From assembly GCA_963719515.1 (NCBI GenBank), contig CAVRCJ010000003.1, positions 320,001 through 384,000 of the forward strand: a DNA stretch of 64,000 nucleotides. Direction: 5' to 3'. The notes under the pieces were generated by a model. That model did no database searches. It was given only the letters and a program-made list of their open reading frames with translations, and was not told the DNA's origin. A program made the position numbers and the translations under genes. This DNA comes from an uncultured cyanobacterium (GTDB taxonomy: Bacteria > Cyanobacteriota > Cyanobacteriia > CAKZMO01). This document shows, piece after piece, positions 4,449 through 26,407 of this stretch. How positions within the stretch are numbered: the stretch's first letter is position 1; every line of letters starts with the position of its first letter.

Positions 4449-4976
4449 ATGTCAGACCTGCATATCTCTTGGCCAGAGTACTACGACAAAGTTGAGCGGC
4501 TCGCCGCCAGCGTTCACCAATCGGGGTGGGAGTTCAATCAGATCGTCTGTATTGCCAAGGGAGGGTTACGCGTTGGCGATACCCTAGCCCGCCTGTTCGA
4601 CGTGCCGCTGGCGGTGATGGCCACGAGCTCTTATCGGGGTGTGGGCAGCCACAGCACTCGAGAGAAAATTGTGTTCTCTCAGCACTTGGCGATGACGACT
4701 CAAAACCTGGGGAGCCGCGTGCTGCTGGTAGATGACTTGGCGGACTCCGGCGTTACCCTGGAGCGCAGCGTGGCCTGGCTACAGTACCACTACGGGTTCT
4801 ATATCGAGACGGTGCGCACGGCAGTGCTGTGGTACAAGAGCTGTTCGGTCGCTAAGCCAGACTATTATGTGGACTACCTGCCAGACGACCCCTGGATTCA
4901 TCAGCCTTTTGAGCGCTATGAAGCGATGAGTCCAGCGGATCTATCGCGATCGCTAGAGGCTGTGCAGAGGTCTTGA
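4449..4976 (+). CDS. Type I phosphoribosyltransferase (purine salvage-like)
   Basis: PRPP-binding loop VLLVDDLADSGVTL; WIHQPFE end. Confidence 0.9.
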   Translation: MSDLHISWPEYYDKVERLAASVHQSGWEFNQIVCIAKGGLRVGDTLARLFDVPLAVMATSSYRGVGSHSTREKIVFSQHLAMTTQNLGSRVLLVDDLADSGVTLERSVAWLQYHYGFYIETVRTAVLWYKSCSVAKPDYYVDYLPDDPWIHQPFERYEAMSPADLSRSLEAVQRS

Positions 4977-5005
4977 GGTAGTGGAGTCATAGCAAGTCCT
5001 AAGCA

Positions 5006-5944
5006 TTAGGACATCTGCTGTAAGTGCCCCTTGATGGCAAACCAACCCTCCCGCAGTTTCCAAAACTTGCTGGTCTTCATCGCCTCCACCTCTCCGGCTA
5101 GCTCTCCGGCCCTCGCCTCTAGGGTCTGCACCCGCTGCTCTAGTGCCTGAATGCGCCGTTCGCGGGCCACCACCGCGCGGTGCCGCTCTTCCAGCCGAGC
5201 GTACTTATCGGTAAACTCTTGCTGCAGGACCGTCATCCGCCGCGACCGCCACTCCGGCTGCTGATAGACCGGCAGCTGGTTTTGAATTTCAAACACTTCC
5301 GCAAACAGGGCGCGAATATCGCTGGAGGCGCCGCCTTGGCTGTAGGAGGCGATCGCTCGGGGTATATGATGCACCATCAGCTCGGGGTGGGCCAGCAGCC
5401 GCACAAACCAGTCGTAGTCGGCGGCAATTTTATAGCGCTCGCAAAATGGCCCCAGCACCTTAAATAGATCAGCGCTGAAGAAGCTGGCGGGCTGAATAAA
5501 GCAGTTGCCCAGATACACCAGCTCCGCGAGCGTCTCCTCCGGCGGGGCCGGTTCATAATGGCGGCCTGCCACATTCCCAAGGTGCCGAGTTTCGTGGTTG
5601 CCGTAAATAAAGTCGCAATCGGGGTGAGCCTGACTGTAGGCCATTACGTCAGCCACAACCTCATCGTCGAGCAGGTAATCGTCGGCGTTGGCAAAATAAA
5701 CCCAATCGCCTGTGGCCCGAGCAACGCCCTTATTCATGGCCTGGTAAATCCCCTCATCCGGTTCTGTAATCAGGGTAGTAATGCGATCGCTGTAGCAACG
5801 GAGCAGATCAAGGGTGCCATCCGTAGAAGCGCCATCTACCACGATGTACTCTAGCGGAGCGTAGGTTTGGGCCAAAACCTGCTGGATGGTTTTTTCTAAG
5901 GTTGCCGCCGCGTTATAGCAGACAGTGATGATTGAAACCTTCAT
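5006..5944 (-). CDS. Glycosyltransferase family 2 with a C-terminal coiled coil
   Basis: VSIITVCYN, VVDGASTDGT, GIYQAMNKG, ANADD; SKFWKLR tail. Confidence 0.92.
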   Translation of the reverse strand: MKVSIITVCYNAAATLEKTIQQVLAQTYAPLEYIVVDGASTDGTLDLLRCYSDRITTLITEPDEGIYQAMNKGVARATGDWVYFANADDYLLDDEVVADVMAYSQAHPDCDFIYGNHETRHLGNVAGRHYEPAPPEETLAELVYLGNCFIQPASFFSADLFKVLGPFCERYKIAADYDWFVRLLAHPELMVHHIPRAIASYSQGGASSDIRALFAEVFEIQNQLPVYQQPEWRSRRMTVLQQEFTDKYARLEERHRAVVARERRIQALEQRVQTLEARAGELAGEVEAMKTSKFWKLREGWFAIKGHLQQMS

Positions 5945-6013
5945 GCGCGACCCGCCTGTGATGGTGCTCAGTCTGTTACTTCGATTTGCCGACCTTATCT
6001 ACCCTGCTGCCGG

Positions 6014-7252
6014 CTACACCTCCCCCTGCATGACTTGCTTCAGAGTCGTCAACATCCCCAGCGTAATAGGACCGCGATAGTGCCCTCGATCGTTGGACAT
6101 CCCCAGAAATAGGGGATAGCCCTGAGACGAAATGCGTCTAAAGCGGGGGGAAGTATTGATATAGACCGTAGCACTGGTGATCGCTGTGGCGAACCGACGA
6201 CTCTCTGAGTAGGAATCTGTGACTAAGCAGTCAGCATGGCCGCTGCTGTGGCTATTAATCCACCGAGCGGCCTGCGTTACGTTCTCCACCGTTTTGAGCG
6301 TCACGGTGCGGTTCAGGCTCGCCTGGGTCCAGGATTCCTCTTCAGCAACGGCGAGCTCCGGAAACTTTGCCACCATGACGGCATCGCCCTTGAGCCTAAA
6401 TCCTTTACTTACCAAATTGTCCAGCAGCTCGCGCGTCTCGCGGTCGTCGCAGCGCTGGTCGATCAAAACTTTTTCGACCGCGTTGACTGGATCGGGCTCG
6501 CTCTTATGGCTGTCTACCACGATGCGATTGACAAGTTCAGCGCTGCCAGAACTACCCCAATAGAGATAGCAGTTGCCGATGGCGGTTTTCAAAACTGGAA
6601 CTGTGGCCTGTGCAACGACCTGATTCACTAAACTTCGACGACCGTAGGGAATGACGAGGTTAACGCCCCGGGTGACGGTCACTAGCTCACGCACTAGGTT
6701 GCCCTGGTCTGACGGCAGCAGCTGTACGCTGTGCTCGGCAAGCCCAGTTTCCTGTAGGGCTTCCTGCAGCACTTTGGCGATGGCGCGGTTTGAATGGCTG
6801 GCTTCGCTTCCGCCTTTGAGAATAAGGGCGTTGCCGGTTCTGAGACTAAATCCCGCCATAATAGCGCTCAGCTCTGGAAATGATTCGTAAATCAGCGCGA
6901 CGACGCCCAGCGGCATAGATTGACCAACGACTAAGCCTTGGTTGGCGGCATAGGGGGTTGCGAAAACCTGATTGAGCGGGTCCGGGCATTGAGCGAGCCG
7001 CTCTAGAATTTGAACTGTCGTCGTCAGCCGCTCTGGCGTCAGCTTCAGCCAGTCGAGAATCAAGGCGGGGACGGCCATCTCCCGACTGGCTTCTAGGTCT
7101 AGCGTGTTCGCTTCTAAGATGTCGTCTCGATGGGTCTCGAGCAACCTGGCCATCAAGGTGATGCAGCGGCTGCGCAGATCTGCTGGTGTCGCTCTCAGTA
7201 GCGGGACAACTTGACGGGATGCGTGAATGGCAGAGTCTATTATTGTAGTCAA
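6014..7252 (-). CDS. proA: Gamma-glutamyl phosphate reductase-like protein (divergent ProA2 type)
   Basis: ILEANTLDL, PLGVVALIYE, LILKGGSEA, IPYGR, VYINTSPRF; TTG start at 7252 inferred. Confidence 0.85.
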   Translation of the reverse strand: MTTIIDSAIHASRQVVPLLRATPADLRSRCITLMARLLETHRDDILEANTLDLEASREMAVPALILDWLKLTPERLTTTVQILERLAQCPDPLNQVFATPYAANQGLVVGQSMPLGVVALIYESFPELSAIMAGFSLRTGNALILKGGSEASHSNRAIAKVLQEALQETGLAEHSVQLLPSDQGNLVRELVTVTRGVNLVIPYGRRSLVNQVVAQATVPVLKTAIGNCYLYWGSSGSAELVNRIVVDSHKSEPDPVNAVEKVLIDQRCDDRETRELLDNLVSKGFRLKGDAVMVAKFPELAVAEEESWTQASLNRTVTLKTVENVTQAARWINSHSSGHADCLVTDSYSESRRFATAITSATVYINTSPRFRRISSQGYPLFLGMSNDRGHYRGPITLGMLTTLKQVMQGEV

Positions 7253-18497: not shown

Positions 18498-18887
18498 ATG
18501 GAATTTCTCTACTGTTTCGCAACCGCTAGCTTGACCCAATGCGTGCTGGTCTATCTACAGCGGAAGCTGCGATCGCAGCTTCTATGTGCTACGGTGATTT
18601 TTCTAAACGACCGCTGGATCCTGCGGCTAACGCTGAAGCCCTCTATAGAGGCCGAACAGCGCAGCAACTGTCTTGCTGTCCTCAAAGAATACGGCATTCC
18701 CTGTCAACCCCTTCCCCTTTTCGGCCCGGTTTTTGACGATCTTGACGCGGGCGATCGCGCAACCACCGTGATGAATCGCCGCCGAATCGCCATTGTGTCC
18801 CACGGGGTCCCTGACCCGGTAGAGGTTCAATATTTTCAAAAGCACTTCATTTCGGGGCTGGGATACTGTCCGCAAAGCCTGGTTTAG
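18498..18887 (+). CDS. Hypothetical protein (paralog of 26021-26407)
   Basis: Shares ASLT, GIP, AIVSHG.P and GLGYCP motifs with 26021-26407. Confidence 0.8.
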   Translation: MEFLYCFATASLTQCVLVYLQRKLRSQLLCATVIFLNDRWILRLTLKPSIEAEQRSNCLAVLKEYGIPCQPLPLFGPVFDDLDAGDRATTVMNRRRIAIVSHGVPDPVEVQYFQKHFISGLGYCPQSLV

Positions 18888-18937: not shown

Positions 18938-20860
18938 CTATCGCTTTAACCGGTTGAGAATACGAAGCGGTAATTCCCTGGACATGGCCGATTTGCTGAC
19001 GAAGTCATCTGCCCCGACGCCAAACGCCTGCTGCTGAATACTCGTCTCTTCGTGGACCGTGAGGAACAGAATCGGCAGCTGCCACCAGGTTTCGTCTGCC
19101 CGCAGCACCTGGCAAATTTCTAAGCCATTGGCCTCTGGCATTTCTACGTCCAATACCAGCAAGTCAGGCTGCACTGTTTCCAGCAGGGGCTGCAGCTGAG
19201 CCAGGTTGTCTAGCGTGGTGAGCTGAAAGCCCCATGGCGAGAGCAAGGTGCGCAGTAGATCTAGGACCTGAGCGTCATCGTCAACGATCATCACCTTGGC
19301 CCCGCCCTGATCGACCTGACGCATCTGCTGGACAATTTCGATGATGCCTTGAGGGGAGAGCGAGGGAGAAAGAATGCGGTCGGTCCCCTGCTGGACGAGC
19401 CGCAGCCGCTGGTGAAAATCTTGGATGTCGGTTATCGCAATGATTAACGTCTTGCTGATGGGCGGCGACGGATACAGGTCTAAGCCGTAGTCTGTCGCTT
19501 GGGGTAAGCGCTCTAGCAGCATTGTTGCCTCGTCAAGGGATGTTTCGTCTAGCCATAGCAAAATGACTGCCGGCGGCTGATCTTGCAGCCTATTACAGCC
19601 TTGGCTGGGGTCAGATAACACCGCGCTGCAAAGACCAGTAGCAGAGGCGATCGCCACTAGAGCTTGGTTCACGGAGTCACTCGCTCCCACAATCCAGAGC
19701 TCAGTGAGGGCCTGGAAGTCTTGAGAGCGGCGCGAGGCAATGGCCTCCACTGCAACTGGGACAGCGGCAGTGGCCTCGCTATCCAACTGCTGGCGGAGAC
19801 GACCTACCACCGCCGAAATGTGGGGCGAATGTTGTTCGAGGCGGGTGTTGGGCAGCAGCAGCAGCTCTAGCTCCCGAGCTAGGCGAGACCCCTCTGGAAA
19901 CCCAAAGCAGCCTAGGGCCCCTGCCAGCTTATGGGCTTGGGCACACCCAGACTGCCGCAGCTCTGGGCTTAGCTCCCCGATATTCATCGCCGCTACCAGC
20001 GCTTCCAACACCGCTAGCCGCTCCTGCATTGTGCCTCTGTGGGTTTCCCAGGCGGTGGCGATCGCGGCGGCGATATCTGAGGGGGTAGGAACTGAGGGCG
20101 GTAGGGACCGAGGACTGAGGGCGGGTGCGTCGGGCAGAGCGTCGGTGACGAGCGTCGCGCTTGACGCTACGTTGGCGGGGGCGGTATCGCGGGGGTTGAG
20201 GCGGTACCCCAACCCATATACTGTCTCGATGATGTCCTTGGGCGCTCCCCCTGCCTTTAGCTTCTGGCGTAGTCCTTTGACGTGGGTTCTGACGGCATCT
20301 TCACCAGGCGGATCTTGAAATGACCACAGGTTTTCGATGATAGTATCAAGGCTAAATACTCGGCTAGGGTGACGCAGGAATAGCTCTAGTAGCGCATATT
20401 CCTTGGGCGTGGTGTGAAGCAGATGCTCCCCGTAAAATACTTCAAAGGTGTCCGGCTTCAAGCTCAAGTCTCCCCAACGCAGCGTCGCGGTTAGCCCGGG
20501 GCTCTCTCGGCGCAGCAGCGCTCTAATGCGGGCACAAAGCTCGTCAAAATCGAATGGCTTAATCACGTAGTCGTCTGCCCCGGCGTCTAGAGCTTGGACC
20601 TTAGCCGTGCTGTCGTCATTTGCGCTCAGCATCAAAATTGGACTCTCAGTGCCTTCTGTGCGGAGCTGCCGGCACAGTGACACCCCCTCGACGTCTGGCA
20701 GCCGCATATCCAAGACGAGCAAATCGTAAGAAAAAAGCGCTAGAAACTCCTGTGCGGTTTCGCCATCCACAGCGATGTCTACCGCATAGCGCTGCTTAAT
20801 CAACGCTTCTGCCAATGTCTCCATCAGCAGTTCGTCATCGTCAATCAAGAGTAGACGCAT
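18938..20860 (-). CDS. Multidomain response regulator REC-wHTH-HPt-REC(degenerate)-REC (RcaC-like)
   Basis: LVLDMRLP, IETVYGLGYRL (OmpR wHTH), AHKLAGALGCFG (HPt), C-terminal LLVLDVEMP. Confidence 0.92.
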   Translation of the reverse strand: MRLLLIDDDELLMETLAEALIKQRYAVDIAVDGETAQEFLALFSYDLLVLDMRLPDVEGVSLCRQLRTEGTESPILMLSANDDSTAKVQALDAGADDYVIKPFDFDELCARIRALLRRESPGLTATLRWGDLSLKPDTFEVFYGEHLLHTTPKEYALLELFLRHPSRVFSLDTIIENLWSFQDPPGEDAVRTHVKGLRQKLKAGGAPKDIIETVYGLGYRLNPRDTAPANVASSATLVTDALPDAPALSPRSLPPSVPTPSDIAAAIATAWETHRGTMQERLAVLEALVAAMNIGELSPELRQSGCAQAHKLAGALGCFGFPEGSRLARELELLLLPNTRLEQHSPHISAVVGRLRQQLDSEATAAVPVAVEAIASRRSQDFQALTELWIVGASDSVNQALVAIASATGLCSAVLSDPSQGCNRLQDQPPAVILLWLDETSLDEATMLLERLPQATDYGLDLYPSPPISKTLIIAITDIQDFHQRLRLVQQGTDRILSPSLSPQGIIEIVQQMRQVDQGGAKVMIVDDDAQVLDLLRTLLSPWGFQLTTLDNLAQLQPLLETVQPDLLVLDVEMPEANGLEICQVLRADETWWQLPILFLTVHEETSIQQQAFGVGADDFVSKSAMSRELPLRILNRLKR

Positions 20861-21074: not shown

Positions 21075-21968
21075 TTACCGCGACAGCTCTATGCGCGTAG
21101 AAGTCATCAACGCTTGAACCATGGCTCGACAGAGCGCACCCTCGACGACTTGGTCAAACCGAACAAACATGGGTGAACTGTTGAGTTCTAGAAAGGCGAG
21201 CCGTTGAGTTTTTGGGTCCGTCTTAAAGTCGGCTGCTCCAAAATCCATTCGTAGCGCCGCCATCAAGGCCCGTAGTTTCTCGACTTCAGGCTGCGGCGAG
21301 TCTAGCGGTACGAGATCTACATCCTGCTTGACGCGGTAGTCCAGAGACGGACTCTGAACCTCAAACGCAAAGGTGCGATCGCCCACCACATAAACTCGAA
21401 TTTCTGGCGCAACGAGTCGATTTTGCACAATGGCCGGAGTCGCACTACAGCCGTGGCGCGGCTGTAGCGATCGCAGCAGGTCGTCTAGGGGATAGCAAAA
21501 ATCGCCCCCCGCTACAGGTTTGGCGATCGCCTCCTTGGCGTCGAACTGCGCGAGCTGCGCGGCGTCGTTGGTGATGCAGATGCTAGGAATCGTCAGGCCC
21601 TGCTGCTGAGCCAGCATGAGCAGGGCCGGCTTGTTGCCTACGGCAGTCTGCTGCTGTCGGTTGAATAGCCGGATGTCTGGCTGAGAGAGCAGCCAGCCGT
21701 ACATTGCCTGGTACCAACCCGCCGATCGCTGCGCCGCTTGAGGCTTTTGGTCGTGAACGTCGTAGCGCAGGAAGGCCCCCCTCGGGGCGAGGGGCTGACC
21801 GTTTAGGGTCGCGCCACCGGACAGCCGCCAAGAGAAAGCTGGACTCGTCTCTGGGTGATGGCGGGCGTCCCGTATCGAGATGCCCATGAGGGTGGCAACC
21901 TCTATCAGCCGGGTGAGGTTGGGGTCCGAAGCTCCCCCGGCGATGAGTAGCGAATCTATCTGGGTCAC
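21075..21968 (-). CDS. ATP-grasp ligase (RimK-like), putative graspetide macrocyclase
   Basis: GNKP, AKPVAGG, AIVQNRL, EIRVYVVG, LDYR, FGAADFK, FLELNSSP; starts 15 nt after the precursor gene. Confidence 0.88.
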   Translation of the reverse strand: MTQIDSLLIAGGASDPNLTRLIEVATLMGISIRDARHHPETSPAFSWRLSGGATLNGQPLAPRGAFLRYDVHDQKPQAAQRSAGWYQAMYGWLLSQPDIRLFNRQQQTAVGNKPALLMLAQQQGLTIPSICITNDAAQLAQFDAKEAIAKPVAGGDFCYPLDDLLRSLQPRHGCSATPAIVQNRLVAPEIRVYVVGDRTFAFEVQSPSLDYRVKQDVDLVPLDSPQPEVEKLRALMAALRMDFGAADFKTDPKTQRLAFLELNSSPMFVRFDQVVEGALCRAMVQALMTSTRIELSR

Positions 21969-21983
21969 TGTGAGCGGGTAGCC

Positions 21984-22508
21984 TTAGTAGCGACCGAAGG
22001 GACCGCCGGGCTCTTCTTCGCCCACGGCCAGGGTGGTGACGGGACTCTCTTCCCCCAGCGCTAGGGTCGTGAAGTCCTCTTCTCCCAAGGCACGGGTAGA
22101 GGCCACTGGACCTTCTTCCCCCAGGGCGCGGGTAGAGACTACCGGATCCTCTTCGCCTAGAGCCAGGGTAGTGATCGGCGCTGGGTCAGCGGATGCCGTT
22201 CTAAATTCAGAGGCGTGAACCGTAAGTGAATTGGTCCGTGCGGTGACAATGACGGCGTCTGCGCCGTTATCCGGGGTGATGCTGATGGAGGCAGAAATGG
22301 GGGACAGCACCTGGGGAACGATGTCCGTGGGCCGGTCGGCGTCAAAGCTAAATTCGAGAACGGCATCTCCGGGGGTGGGGTCGGCGGAGTTGTCGAGCCG
22401 AGGGTTGGTCCAGCCGGGGGTGGCGGCGAGCCCAGAGGCCTGGATGCAAAGCATTGGAGGTTCGCCGTGCTTGATGACGGTGACTTGGGTGACCTGGAGA
22501 ATTTTCAT
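21984..22508 (-). CDS. Multi-core graspetide (omega-ester RiPP) precursor with five (T/S)TxxxxEE repeats
   Basis: TTLALGEE, STRALGEE, STRALGEE, TTLALGEE, TTLAVGEE after a ~110-aa N-terminal region. Confidence 0.85.
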   Translation of the reverse strand: MKILQVTQVTVIKHGEPPMLCIQASGLAATPGWTNPRLDNSADPTPGDAVLEFSFDADRPTDIVPQVLSPISASISITPDNGADAVIVTARTNSLTVHASEFRTASADPAPITTLALGEEDPVVSTRALGEEGPVASTRALGEEDFTTLALGEESPVTTLAVGEEEPGGPFGRY

Positions 22509-22654
22509 GGCACTTGCCTTCGTTGATTAAGGGGTGACGTGACAAACCAAAATTGGATTTCCATAATTTAATCCCTAAAAGGTATTTTTGGAGGCATCCT
22601 TAAGAGTGATTTTTGCGCCGTCGGATGCTAAAGATCACCTGGTGTGAAGGCTTG

Positions 22655-22683
22655 GCAGGGGCTTGGCACTGCCAAGCCCCTGC
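22655..22683. repeat. Perfect 14-bp palindrome (REP-like or terminator) between mscS and the RiPP locus
   Basis: GCAGGGGCTTGGCA-C-TGCCAAGCCCCTGC. Confidence 0.7.
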
Positions 22684-22773
22684 TACGATTTGTGTTGATC
22701 TTCGATAAATTTTGGTTATTTGCCGATAGCCGCTTCCTCAATGCGGCGCTTTCGGCAAGCACCGCTAAACCCT

Positions 22774-26020: not shown

Positions 26021-26407
26021 ATGGACTATACGTACCGCCTCGCGAATGCCAGCCTCACCCTCAGGGTTGTTGAGTCTCTTAACCGAGCCCAGATGACCGT
26101 CAGGTTCATGACCGTCATCCACCAGATCGATGGTTGGGTGATAAAAATTAGGCTTGCCCATCCCCTGTCTGCTCAAGATGACGGCGACTTTCGAGCGTTT
26201 CTCAACGAGGTTGGCATCCCCTATACCCCAGACGTGCGGATGAAAATGACGTTCTGGGGACTAGAGACAGGTCAATCGCCCGTGGATGTGATGCGCCGCT
26301 ACCAGGTGGCGATCGTGTCCCACGGTGCGCCGGACTCTACGGAAATCGAGGCTTTCAGGCTGGAGTTCGTGAAGGGGTTGGGCTACTGCCCAGAGACCCT
26401 GGCCTAG
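26021..26407 (+). CDS. Hypothetical protein (paralog of 18498-18887)
   Basis: LANASLTLRVVE...AIVSHGAP...GLGYCPETLA. Confidence 0.82.
   Translation: MDYTYRLANASLTLRVVESLNRAQMTVRFMTVIHQIDGWVIKIRLAHPLSAQDDGDFRAFLNEVGIPYTPDVRMKMTFWGLETGQSPVDVMRRYQVAIVSHGAPDSTEIEAFRLEFVKGLGYCPETLA

Follow-up and report, generated by a model that had tools for sequence, protein, structure and literature searches.

The DNA analyzed here, called the window throughout, is a stretch of 64,000 nucleotides (nt) from an uncultured cyanobacterium (assembly GCA_963719515.1, contig CAVRCJ010000003.1, positions 320,001 to 384,000). On its minus strand, two adjacent genes very probably form a self-contained cassette for a graspetide of Group 2 (plesiocin type), a peptide made on ribosomes and modified after its translation (RiPP), with a precursor that bears five core repeats and a single ATP-grasp ligase. 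The locus is otherwise ordinary and of an already catalogued type; what sets the precursor apart is a folded domain at its front and a conserved tail at its extreme C-terminus, which may be the element that recruits the ligase. The features of the cassette are the following, with lengths in amino acids (aa) and pLDDT denoting the per-residue confidence of the AlphaFold2 (AF2) model.

21984..22508, minus strand: precursor gene, 174 aa, stop codon at 21984-21986 (list of open reading frames and sequence)
22194..22508, minus strand: N-terminal domain, residues 1-105, predicted seven-strand all-beta (AF2; no Pfam or NCBIfam model)
22173..22193, minus strand: linker SADPAPI, residues 106-112, from the domain to the first core (pLDDT drop and sequence)
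22149..22172, minus strand: core 1, TTLALGEE, residues 113-120 (sequence)
22113..22136, minus strand: core 2, STRALGEE, residues 125-132, Arg type (sequence)
22077..22100, minus strand: core 3, STRALGEE, residues 137-144, Arg type (sequence)
22047..22070, minus strand: core 4, TTLALGEE, residues 147-154 (sequence)
22014..22037, minus strand: core 5, TTLAVGEE, residues 158-165 (sequence)
21987..22001, minus strand: PFGRY tail, residues 170-174, proposed follower motif for ligase recognition (conservation; function inferred)
21969..21983, minus strand: 15-nt spacer between the precursor stop codon and the ligase GTG (sequence)
21075..21968, minus strand: ATP-grasp graspetide synthetase gene, 297 aa, GTG start (list of open reading frames, NCBIfam and PDB matches)
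21396..21398, minus strand: codon of Arg191, aligned with PsnB Arg213 (7drm_A alignment; invariant in 35 ligases)
21333..21341, minus strand: codons of D210-Y211-R212, aligned with the PsnB D-F-R loop (7drm_A alignment; invariant in 35 ligases)

A Group 2 graspetide cassette with a divergent ligase

This arrangement had been described in an earlier reading of the window made from its letters alone (the sequence-only reading), and its observations hold. The five cores and the GGPFGRY tail are present in the 174-aa open reading frame (ORF), together with the leader strings that it quoted (GLAATPGWTNPRL, LEFSFDADRP and PQVLSPISA), and the ATP-grasp gene with a DYR motif placed 15 nt downstream is the 297-aa ORF. 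The two genes, presumably co-transcribed, are each found once in searches of the window's own 5.28-Mb genome. Of 1480 candidates, 183 are homologues of the precursor at E ≤ 0.01, without exception named "hypothetical" and devoid of Pfam domains, and the ligase has 403 homologues at E ≤ 1e-5. Since, in addition, the precursor lies directly before the ligase in most of 69 related loci, collected from reference genomes via ligase alignment, the pairing of both genes goes beyond chance.

Among the NCBIfam models, those of graspetide maturases rank first on the ligase (TIGR04187, 1.7e-21; MvdD, 7.5e-12; MvdC, 8.3e-10; grasp-with-spasm, 9.5e-06). Its best PDB match is 7drm_A, deposited as PsnB, the plesiocin macrocyclase, at 5.1e-12 with the single sequence and at 1.9e-19 with a profile of 35 ligases. 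Indeed, all six PDB matches of the profile at E ≤ 0.001 are graspetide synthetases (PsnB, CdnC, AMdnB, 5ig8, 5ig9 and 9bou), and no RimK or GshB chain is found among them. The alignment to 7drm_A excludes the N-terminal 100 residues, which did not align, and uses a chain numbering of native + 20, deduced from the fit of seven out of seven named leader-contact residues at that offset. In this alignment, Arg191 stands opposite PsnB Arg213, reported to recognize the ring-forming Glu, and D210-Y211-R212 opposite the D(F/W)R loop, described as binding ATP. The model ranking, the PDB matches and the alignment of these two sites thus identify the enzyme as a graspetide synthetase and not as a RimK protein. 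None of the seven leader-contact residues of PsnB (Y171, R181, R192, I193, L196, V201 and F203) is identical in the aligned ligase.

A catalogue with rows labelled "Graspetide Group 2" is provided by Carter et al. (2026, ACS Chem Biol) in their supplementary file 2. Rows with this label match relatives of the window precursor from Leptothoe spongobia, Okeania, Moorena, Symploca and a Bryobacteraceae bacterium, and further ones come from Aquabacterium, Angelobacter and Longimicrobium; the precursor listed for "Cyanobacteria bacterium P01_F01_bin.13" is 70% identical to that of the window. Placed via these rows of its relatives, the window locus appears to be an uncharacterized member of a published bioinformatic group. 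The plesiocin-type assignment of the sequence-only reading is therefore borne out by the NCBIfam ranking, the best PDB match and the catalogue; a grouping with RimK or glutathione synthetase, which that reading had named as evidence to the contrary, was checked, and the ligase sides with the graspetide synthetases.

Core repeats and expected protease targets

The repeats of the window precursor comprise three TTxxxxEE and two STxxxxEE cores, with a third core position that reads L-R-R-L-L. Within core 1, residues T113, T114, G118, E119 and E120 are at least 90% conserved in alignments of 42 and of 87 sequences. Across the best 120 precursor relatives, which together hold 828 cores, the first residue pair is TT in 715 and ST in 76 cores, the third position is occupied by L (396), M (105), R (99), F (68), Q (45), K (23) or Y (22), and Ala is found at position 4 in 633 cores, giving a consensus, [T/S]T-x-A-[LVIF]-G-E-E, that is tighter than that of plesiocin. 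Cores of the ST-R kind number 42 in this set, and 61 of the 115 relatives with at least two cores combine hydrophobic and basic third residues in the same protein. By these counts, mixed Leu/Arg cores are a common family trait and no peculiarity of the window locus.

Plesiocin is described as having four TTxxxxEE repeats with two Thr-Glu lactones in each, and the review passage that gives its inhibition constants (Ki) lists elastase (16 nM) and chymotrypsin (7.5 nM), and no inhibition of trypsin. An engineered derivative, Psn-LLLR, which joins Leu and Arg hairpins in a single chain as the window precursor would, is reported to inhibit both chymotrypsin and trypsin (Ki 5.4 and 130 nM). By analogy, it is reasonable to expect that the window precursor would give an inhibitor of two proteases. 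The bifunctional Leu/Arg inhibitor proposed in the sequence-only reading thus matches Psn-LLLR, but is not special to this locus: the mixture, which was engineered in Psn-LLLR, is natural in the window precursor and common in the family.

A conserved C-terminal tail accompanies the ligase

The precursor ends in EPGGPFGRY, and this tail is among the most conserved non-core parts of the protein. In the 42-sequence alignment P170 is invariant and F171 and G172 are at least 90% conserved, the motif standing two residues from the C-terminus; with 87 sequences, the three residues are each at least 90% conserved. The association of the tail with the ligase was measured in the 69 related loci by counting ORFs that end in [PA][FLWMY]Gxx within 2.5 kb of the ligase, taking as background the ORFs of at least 20 aa further off in the same loci. 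Such an ORF was found in 58 of the 69 loci, versus 11 of the 5444 background ORFs, and it is nearly always placed directly upstream of the ligase on the same strand. Among the 11 tail-less loci, five (L030, L037, L039, L043 and L052) have at most 91 nt of sequence 5' of the ligase, and L046 is degenerate, with a partial ligase.

The tail persists across precursors with very different N-termini. It follows the 105-aa domain in cyanobacteria, Bryobacteraceae and one Pirellulaceae genome, only a few N-terminal residues in Angelobacter and Longimicrobium, a double-glycine-like leader (MKELxxxQAExVTGA) in Aquabacterium, and other domains in further related precursors; it is also kept with altered cores, such as KTLACGEE in Longimicrobium. 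Two characterized Group 2 precursors, as catalogued by Carter et al. (2026), are tail-less and have N-terminal leaders: that of Plesiocystis ends in ...TTLSLSAED and RcpA of Rheinheimera in ...GGDLPPLF. The Group 2 hidden Markov model matches the Plesiocystis ligase at 2.9e-79 and those of Rheinheimera at about 1e-62 to 1e-69, and the tail-type ligases at 1e-29 to 1e-38. A related sequence is known from fuscimiditide, for which RPFG is reported as the key recognition sequence of the leader and the leader as functional also when placed behind the core; moreover, Makarova et al. describe a general leader motif, "P-h-h-x-h", of which PFFARFL is the microviridin form.

From the conservation of the tail, its presence in 58 of 69 loci, its persistence across N-termini and cores, its absence from the two tail-less precursors with ligases of another subtype, the lack of PsnB leader-contact residues in the ligase and the RPFG precedent, we infer that PFGx[Y/F] may be the recognition element of this ligase subfamily, that is, a natural follower. 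In the literature covered by our searches, the only follower found for a graspetide was the engineered one. A complex prediction for the ligase and residues 143-174 scored 0.50, versus 0.00 for the best of three controls, and is graded as weak support: 116 of 157 solved complexes attained the mark, as did 2 of 215 mismatched pairs, and scores of 0.60 or less were given to only 18 of the 157 solved complexes and to both mismatches that passed. The runs share at least 32% of contacts, with a partner pLDDT of at least 40 and no contacts given.

Two further observations concern the C-terminal region of related precursors. Many of them, P0002, P0007 and P0027 included, have T[DN]PR[LV]D[DN]P between the last core and the PFG tail; this stretch echoes GWTNPRLDN inside the N-terminal domain, and the window precursor has no second copy of it. 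In the Gemmatimonadota loci L059 and L064, whose ligases belong to a deep-branching clade, the ORFs at 4621-6831 and 4527-6851, respectively, end in xTxxYGEE-like repeats, and may represent very large graspetide substrates.

The N-terminal domain is found in many proteins without cores

AF2, run with the 87 sequences, models residues 1-105 as seven strands, with block pLDDT values of 90-97 up to residue 100, a drop from residue 105 or so, and values below 50 at residues 109-163. No Pfam or NCBIfam model covers this domain, and a Foldseek search with the precursor model gave no PDB match at E ≤ 0.001. In a wide VIA search, a NigD-like protein gave the best match (Z 6.7, root-mean-square deviation 2.8 over 93 residues) with its C-terminal sandwich, and Ig-like and GH2 sandwich domains ranked next; a Z of 6.7 lies within the range of common arrangements, and no relative is claimed among them. 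The nearest ESM Atlas clusters are unnamed hypothetical proteins of 106-133 aa without a Pfam family. PrcB_C (PF14343) was considered as the identity of the domain, and none of the 87 family members matches it at E ≤ 1; a true PrcB_C domain (2.8e-8) occupies the front position in P0081, a distant repeat-bearing protein.

A search with the domain alone against 1.84 billion representatives gave 331 matching clusters at E ≤ 0.001, of which 45 reach 1e-10 and 5 reach 1e-30. The best 150 of the 331 clusters were sorted heuristically with simple regular expressions, the sorted set including fragments among its short entries and a low-complexity artefact, P0273, as follows.

38 of 150: domain with cores and tail
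11 of 150: domain with cores only (some cut or with variant tails)
2 of 150: domain with tail only
36 of 150: single domain, at most 135 aa
47 of 150: single domain plus another region
16 of 150: tandem arrays of 2-5 copies, several with lipoprotein-like signal sequences

Neither cores nor tail were thus detected in 99 of the best 150 clusters. Inhibitor_I78 follows the domain in some of the 48 such proteins scanned: the match at the C-terminus of P0296 is above the Pfam cut-off (30.7 vs 23.6 bits), weaker ones occur in P0307 and P0334, and ends that by eye resemble I78 or potato inhibitor I stand behind the domain in P0308 and P0342. These fusions are small proteins without graspetide cores. 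Among 401 sampled genomes of the phylum, the domain is present in six, the window's own included. Because it exists in single, tandem and I78-fused forms and in proteins without cores, the domain appears to be an independent, mobile module that has been repeatedly joined to protease-inhibitor parts, and it is probably not a leader for ligase recognition.

Ligases of the same clade, 47-52% identical, adjoin precursors of 47-130 aa that lack the domain, and in a quick maximum-likelihood tree of 63 ligases the domain-type precursors fall in at least two separate places amid short-precursor clades, one being a cyanobacterial clade plus one Pirellulaceae row and the other a Bryobacteraceae pair. 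The domain label changes four times on this tree; at least two changes are forced by well-supported branches, and two of the four are artefacts of broken genes (L015 and L016). The sequence-only reading had described a large, folded, domain-sized leader lacking the PFFARFL motif of microviridins. The fold is supported by the model; the leader role is not, given the short precursors of the same clade and the core-less proteins that carry the domain. Likewise, there is indeed no N-terminal motif of this kind, but a related and highly conserved P-F-G-x-aromatic sequence is found at the extreme C-terminus.

Several other features were observed in proteins with this domain. P0243, P0251, P0254, P0256 and P0269 contain three to five copies in 340-710 aa, and several begin with lipoprotein-like signals, which would make them extracellular. 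A Cys-containing module (..GGCTxKExF..P.D.C..ELG..) stands behind the domain in P0288, P0293 and P0303, and the same module was recognized by eye before TTLAxGEE cores and a PFG tail in rows 2138 and 2468 of supplementary file 2 of Carter et al. (2026), as if this module and the domain had been shuffled between proteins. In L016 (Crocosphaera watsonii WH 8501, 4800-6977), the precursor gene is apparently split by an insertion sequence: a 196-aa ORF with the domain and cores (4800-5390) is followed by HTH_32 (5433-6014), a DDE_3 transposase (6079-6720) and an 80-aa ORF (6735-6977) that holds six cores and a PFGRY tail, just before the ligase.

Proposed mechanism and alternative explanations

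In the mechanism that we somewhat favor, follower role of the tail included, the ATP-grasp enzyme would use ATP to phosphorylate both Glu side chains of each [T/S]TxAxGEE repeat, and the two preceding hydroxyl residues would attack them to close two nested omega-ester rings per repeat. Five repeats would give up to 10 esters (-180 Da), both STRALGEE cores using Ser in one ring. The three Leu hairpins would be directed at chymotrypsin/elastase-like serine proteases and the two Arg hairpins at trypsin-like ones. The enzyme would be recruited by the C-terminal PFGx[Y/F] tail as a natural follower, and not by the N-terminal part of the precursor. Residues 1-105 would be an independently folding beta-sandwich module that is probably kept, so that the product would be a modified protein of roughly 18 kDa and not a short peptide. 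Retention of the domain, which we hold with less confidence than the mechanism as a whole, and an intracellular or lysis-released product are considered more likely because no protease or exporter is linked to the cassette. The combined reading goes further, to a follower-directed graspetide with a widespread carrier domain, joined to ester-crosslinked hairpins here and to I78 domains elsewhere, whose mature form is a RiPP-modified protein inhibiting more than one protease class; this we put forward only tentatively. As far as our literature searches reach, the follower and the carrier-domain readings are both new.

The opposite assignment, in which the 105-residue domain is a true large leader that docks on the ligase and is later cut by an unlinked protease, with PFGRY incidental or serving the product, seems unlikely to us. 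The domain does occupy the usual position of a RiPP leader, long leaders are known (67 aa in ThfA, as reported), domain and repeats co-occur in many phyla, and all intact precursors of the cyanobacterial ligase clade have the domain. Nevertheless, this explanation is at odds with the domain-less precursors adjoining ligases of the same clade, with the many domain clusters devoid of cores and tail, tandem arrays and I78 fusions among them, and with the position of the tail among the most conserved non-core residues; nor was a linked protease seen at the window locus, or a conserved one at 22 related loci. We assign a comparably low probability to an explanation that accepts the esters but has recognition proceed mainly via the cores, PFGx[Y/F] instead directing sorting or export, marking a site of processing or belonging to the active product. 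Binding by PsnB is reported to gain markedly from the conserved core Glu residues, the motif lies at the extreme C-terminus like many sorting signals, and tyrosinase genes stand beside the cassette in L001 and L041, the tail often ending in Tyr. On the other hand, no conserved exporter or sorting enzyme is found near the 22 loci, the tail tracks this ligase subfamily and is not shared by the precursors of Plesiocystis and Rheinheimera, which go with another ligase subtype, and experiments are reported to have defined PFG as the core of recognition in the leader of another graspetide. Finally, almost no weight is given to the idea that the enzyme is a RimK/glutathione-synthetase-type ligase lying next to a repeat protein by chance. 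Some records of its relatives are named "RimK family" or "glutathione synthase/RimK-type ligase", and the RimK model TIGR00768 gives a marginal match (E 0.0036; 16.7 bits, the cut-off being 143.4), but graspetide maturase models are better by 18 orders of magnitude, the PDB matches are exclusively graspetide synthetases, and the pairing with a repeat-bearing precursor recurs across several phyla.

A number of observations weigh against the mechanism proposed here. Every NCBIfam match of the ligase lies below its curated cut-off, with 76.7 bits against 350 for the best and 45 and 38 bits against 475 and 425 for MvdD and MvdC, and Pfam has no match; scores so far under the cut-offs point to a divergent subfamily. 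Five loci (L024, L057, L059, L064 and L068) have no tail-bearing ORF despite at least 4.9 kb of upstream sequence, and in two of them, L059 and L064, the ligase is preceded by an ORF of 736-774 aa with C-terminal GEE repeats and no tail. The complex score does not separate binding of the tail from binding of the cores and, a solved complex of PsnB with its precursor being available, may reflect memory. Conservation of the tail could also serve export, processing or activity, and where a clade has the domain, docking on the ligase through it may still occur. Moreover, the missing linked protease does not show retention, as an unlinked protease or transporter could act, and Group 2 is said by Carter et al. 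(2026) to co-occur often with an NHLM-type transporter. No experimental characterization of the tail-type subfamily was found in the literature searched.

Interest in graspetides comes from their use as stable, programmable protease inhibitors. Should the tail be the handle of the ligase, it would provide a follower tag that is natural and minimal, five residues long, and that leaves the N-terminus free, a layout that a 2026 study had to engineer. Should the N-terminal domain stay attached, the distinction between RiPP peptides and proteins cross-linked after translation would become less sharp, and the product would point to an unnamed domain family, the 331 clusters described above, repeatedly joined to protease inhibitors.

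Comparison with characterized graspetides

The cassette resembles that of plesiocin (PsnA2/PsnB, Plesiocystis pacifica) in its tandem TTxxxxEE repeats and single ATP-grasp ligase, and TTLALGEE is also carried by one catalogued Plesiocystis precursor. PsnB is the closest solved relative of the ligase, in which the equivalent of Arg213 and the D(F/W)R loop are kept, and by analogy serine-protease inhibitors are the expected products. In contrast, the PsnA leader is described as short and N-terminal, about 25 aa (...LFIEDLGQVTGG), with no PFG tail, whereas the window precursor begins with a folded domain of 105 aa and bears a conserved motif at its C-terminus. The difference from Group 2a (PsnA/PsnB) extends to recognition, as the leader region with Phe15 and Asp18 is not present in the window precursor and the PsnB leader pocket is not conserved in the ligase.

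RcpA/RcpB of Rheinheimera share with the window cassette the Group 2 assignment, the TTxxxxEE cores and the single ligase, and the esters of RcpA are reported from mass spectrometry and methanolysis. RcpA differs in its N-terminal double-glycine leader, reported to be cut by a peptidase-containing transporter, while no transporter adjoins the window locus, and in its C-terminus, ...GGDLPPLF instead of PFGxY. As for fuscimiditide (ThfA/ThfB), the likeness lies in the RPFG sequence, compared with GPFGRY in the window tail, and in the acceptance by ThfB of a leader placed C-terminal to the cores. However, the natural ThfA leader is described as N-terminal and unstructured, its cores are different, a methyltransferase is needed, and graspimiditides are assigned to another group, group 13, by Carter et al. 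(2026); the follower layout is man-made in ThfA and would be natural in the window precursor.

Microviridins (Group 1) are likewise cyanobacterial protease inhibitors made by ATP-grasp ligases, and their PFFARFL motif resembles PFGRF/PFGRY. They differ in having a TxKYPSD-type core, two ligases, an N-terminal motif and often an acetyltransferase and a transporter, none of which is found at the window locus. Membership in Group 1 was considered and rejected: neither this core nor the N-terminal motif is present in the precursor, the genome has one ligase, and the MvdD and MvdC scores are far below their cut-offs.

Genomic surroundings of the cassette and of related loci

The genes around the cassette encode an MscS-type channel, QueA, a response-regulator/Hpt hybrid, a single-domain response regulator, a CBS protein, an acetyl-CoA synthetase and a ChaN-like protein. 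In agreement with the sequence-only reading, family scans of the window found no protease, transporter or acetyltransferase among the genes adjoining the cassette. No signal sequence is visible in the precursor. A scan for promoter and terminator patterns gave nothing on the minus strand and counts no higher than in shuffled sequences, and in the interval between the upstream MscS-type gene and the precursor it gave one element:

22653..22685, no strand assigned: 15-bp stem-loop (pattern scan, consensus match only)

This stem-loop, one found versus 2.6 expected in shuffles and hence not enriched, marks a possible boundary of the transcription unit.

Across 22 related loci, the 90 flanking proteins scanned include no neighbor conserved across phyla, and no conserved protease, transporter, exporter or sorting enzyme. 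Individual flanking genes encode a prolyl oligopeptidase (L002), an S49 peptidase (L008) and, in the Aquabacterium group, a hybrid kinase and an AdeT-type binding protein. Tyrosinase genes adjoin the cassette in two distant genomes, a cyanobacterial metagenome-assembled genome (MAG; L001, 5194-6168) and a Pirellulaceae MAG (L041, 8530-10002); a link with Tyr-ending tails is pure speculation.

Within the window, a 640-aa hybrid regulator (18938-20860, minus strand) lies 214 nt downstream of the ligase on the same strand, and combines a receiver, a Trans_reg_C DNA-binding domain, an Hpt domain and a second receiver. The region is flanked by two small paralogous genes on the plus strand (18498-18887 and 26021-26407), whose products of 129 and 128 aa are 38% identical (E 2e-28), belong to no Pfam family and share the ending ...IVSHG.PD..E...F...F..GLGYCP..L.

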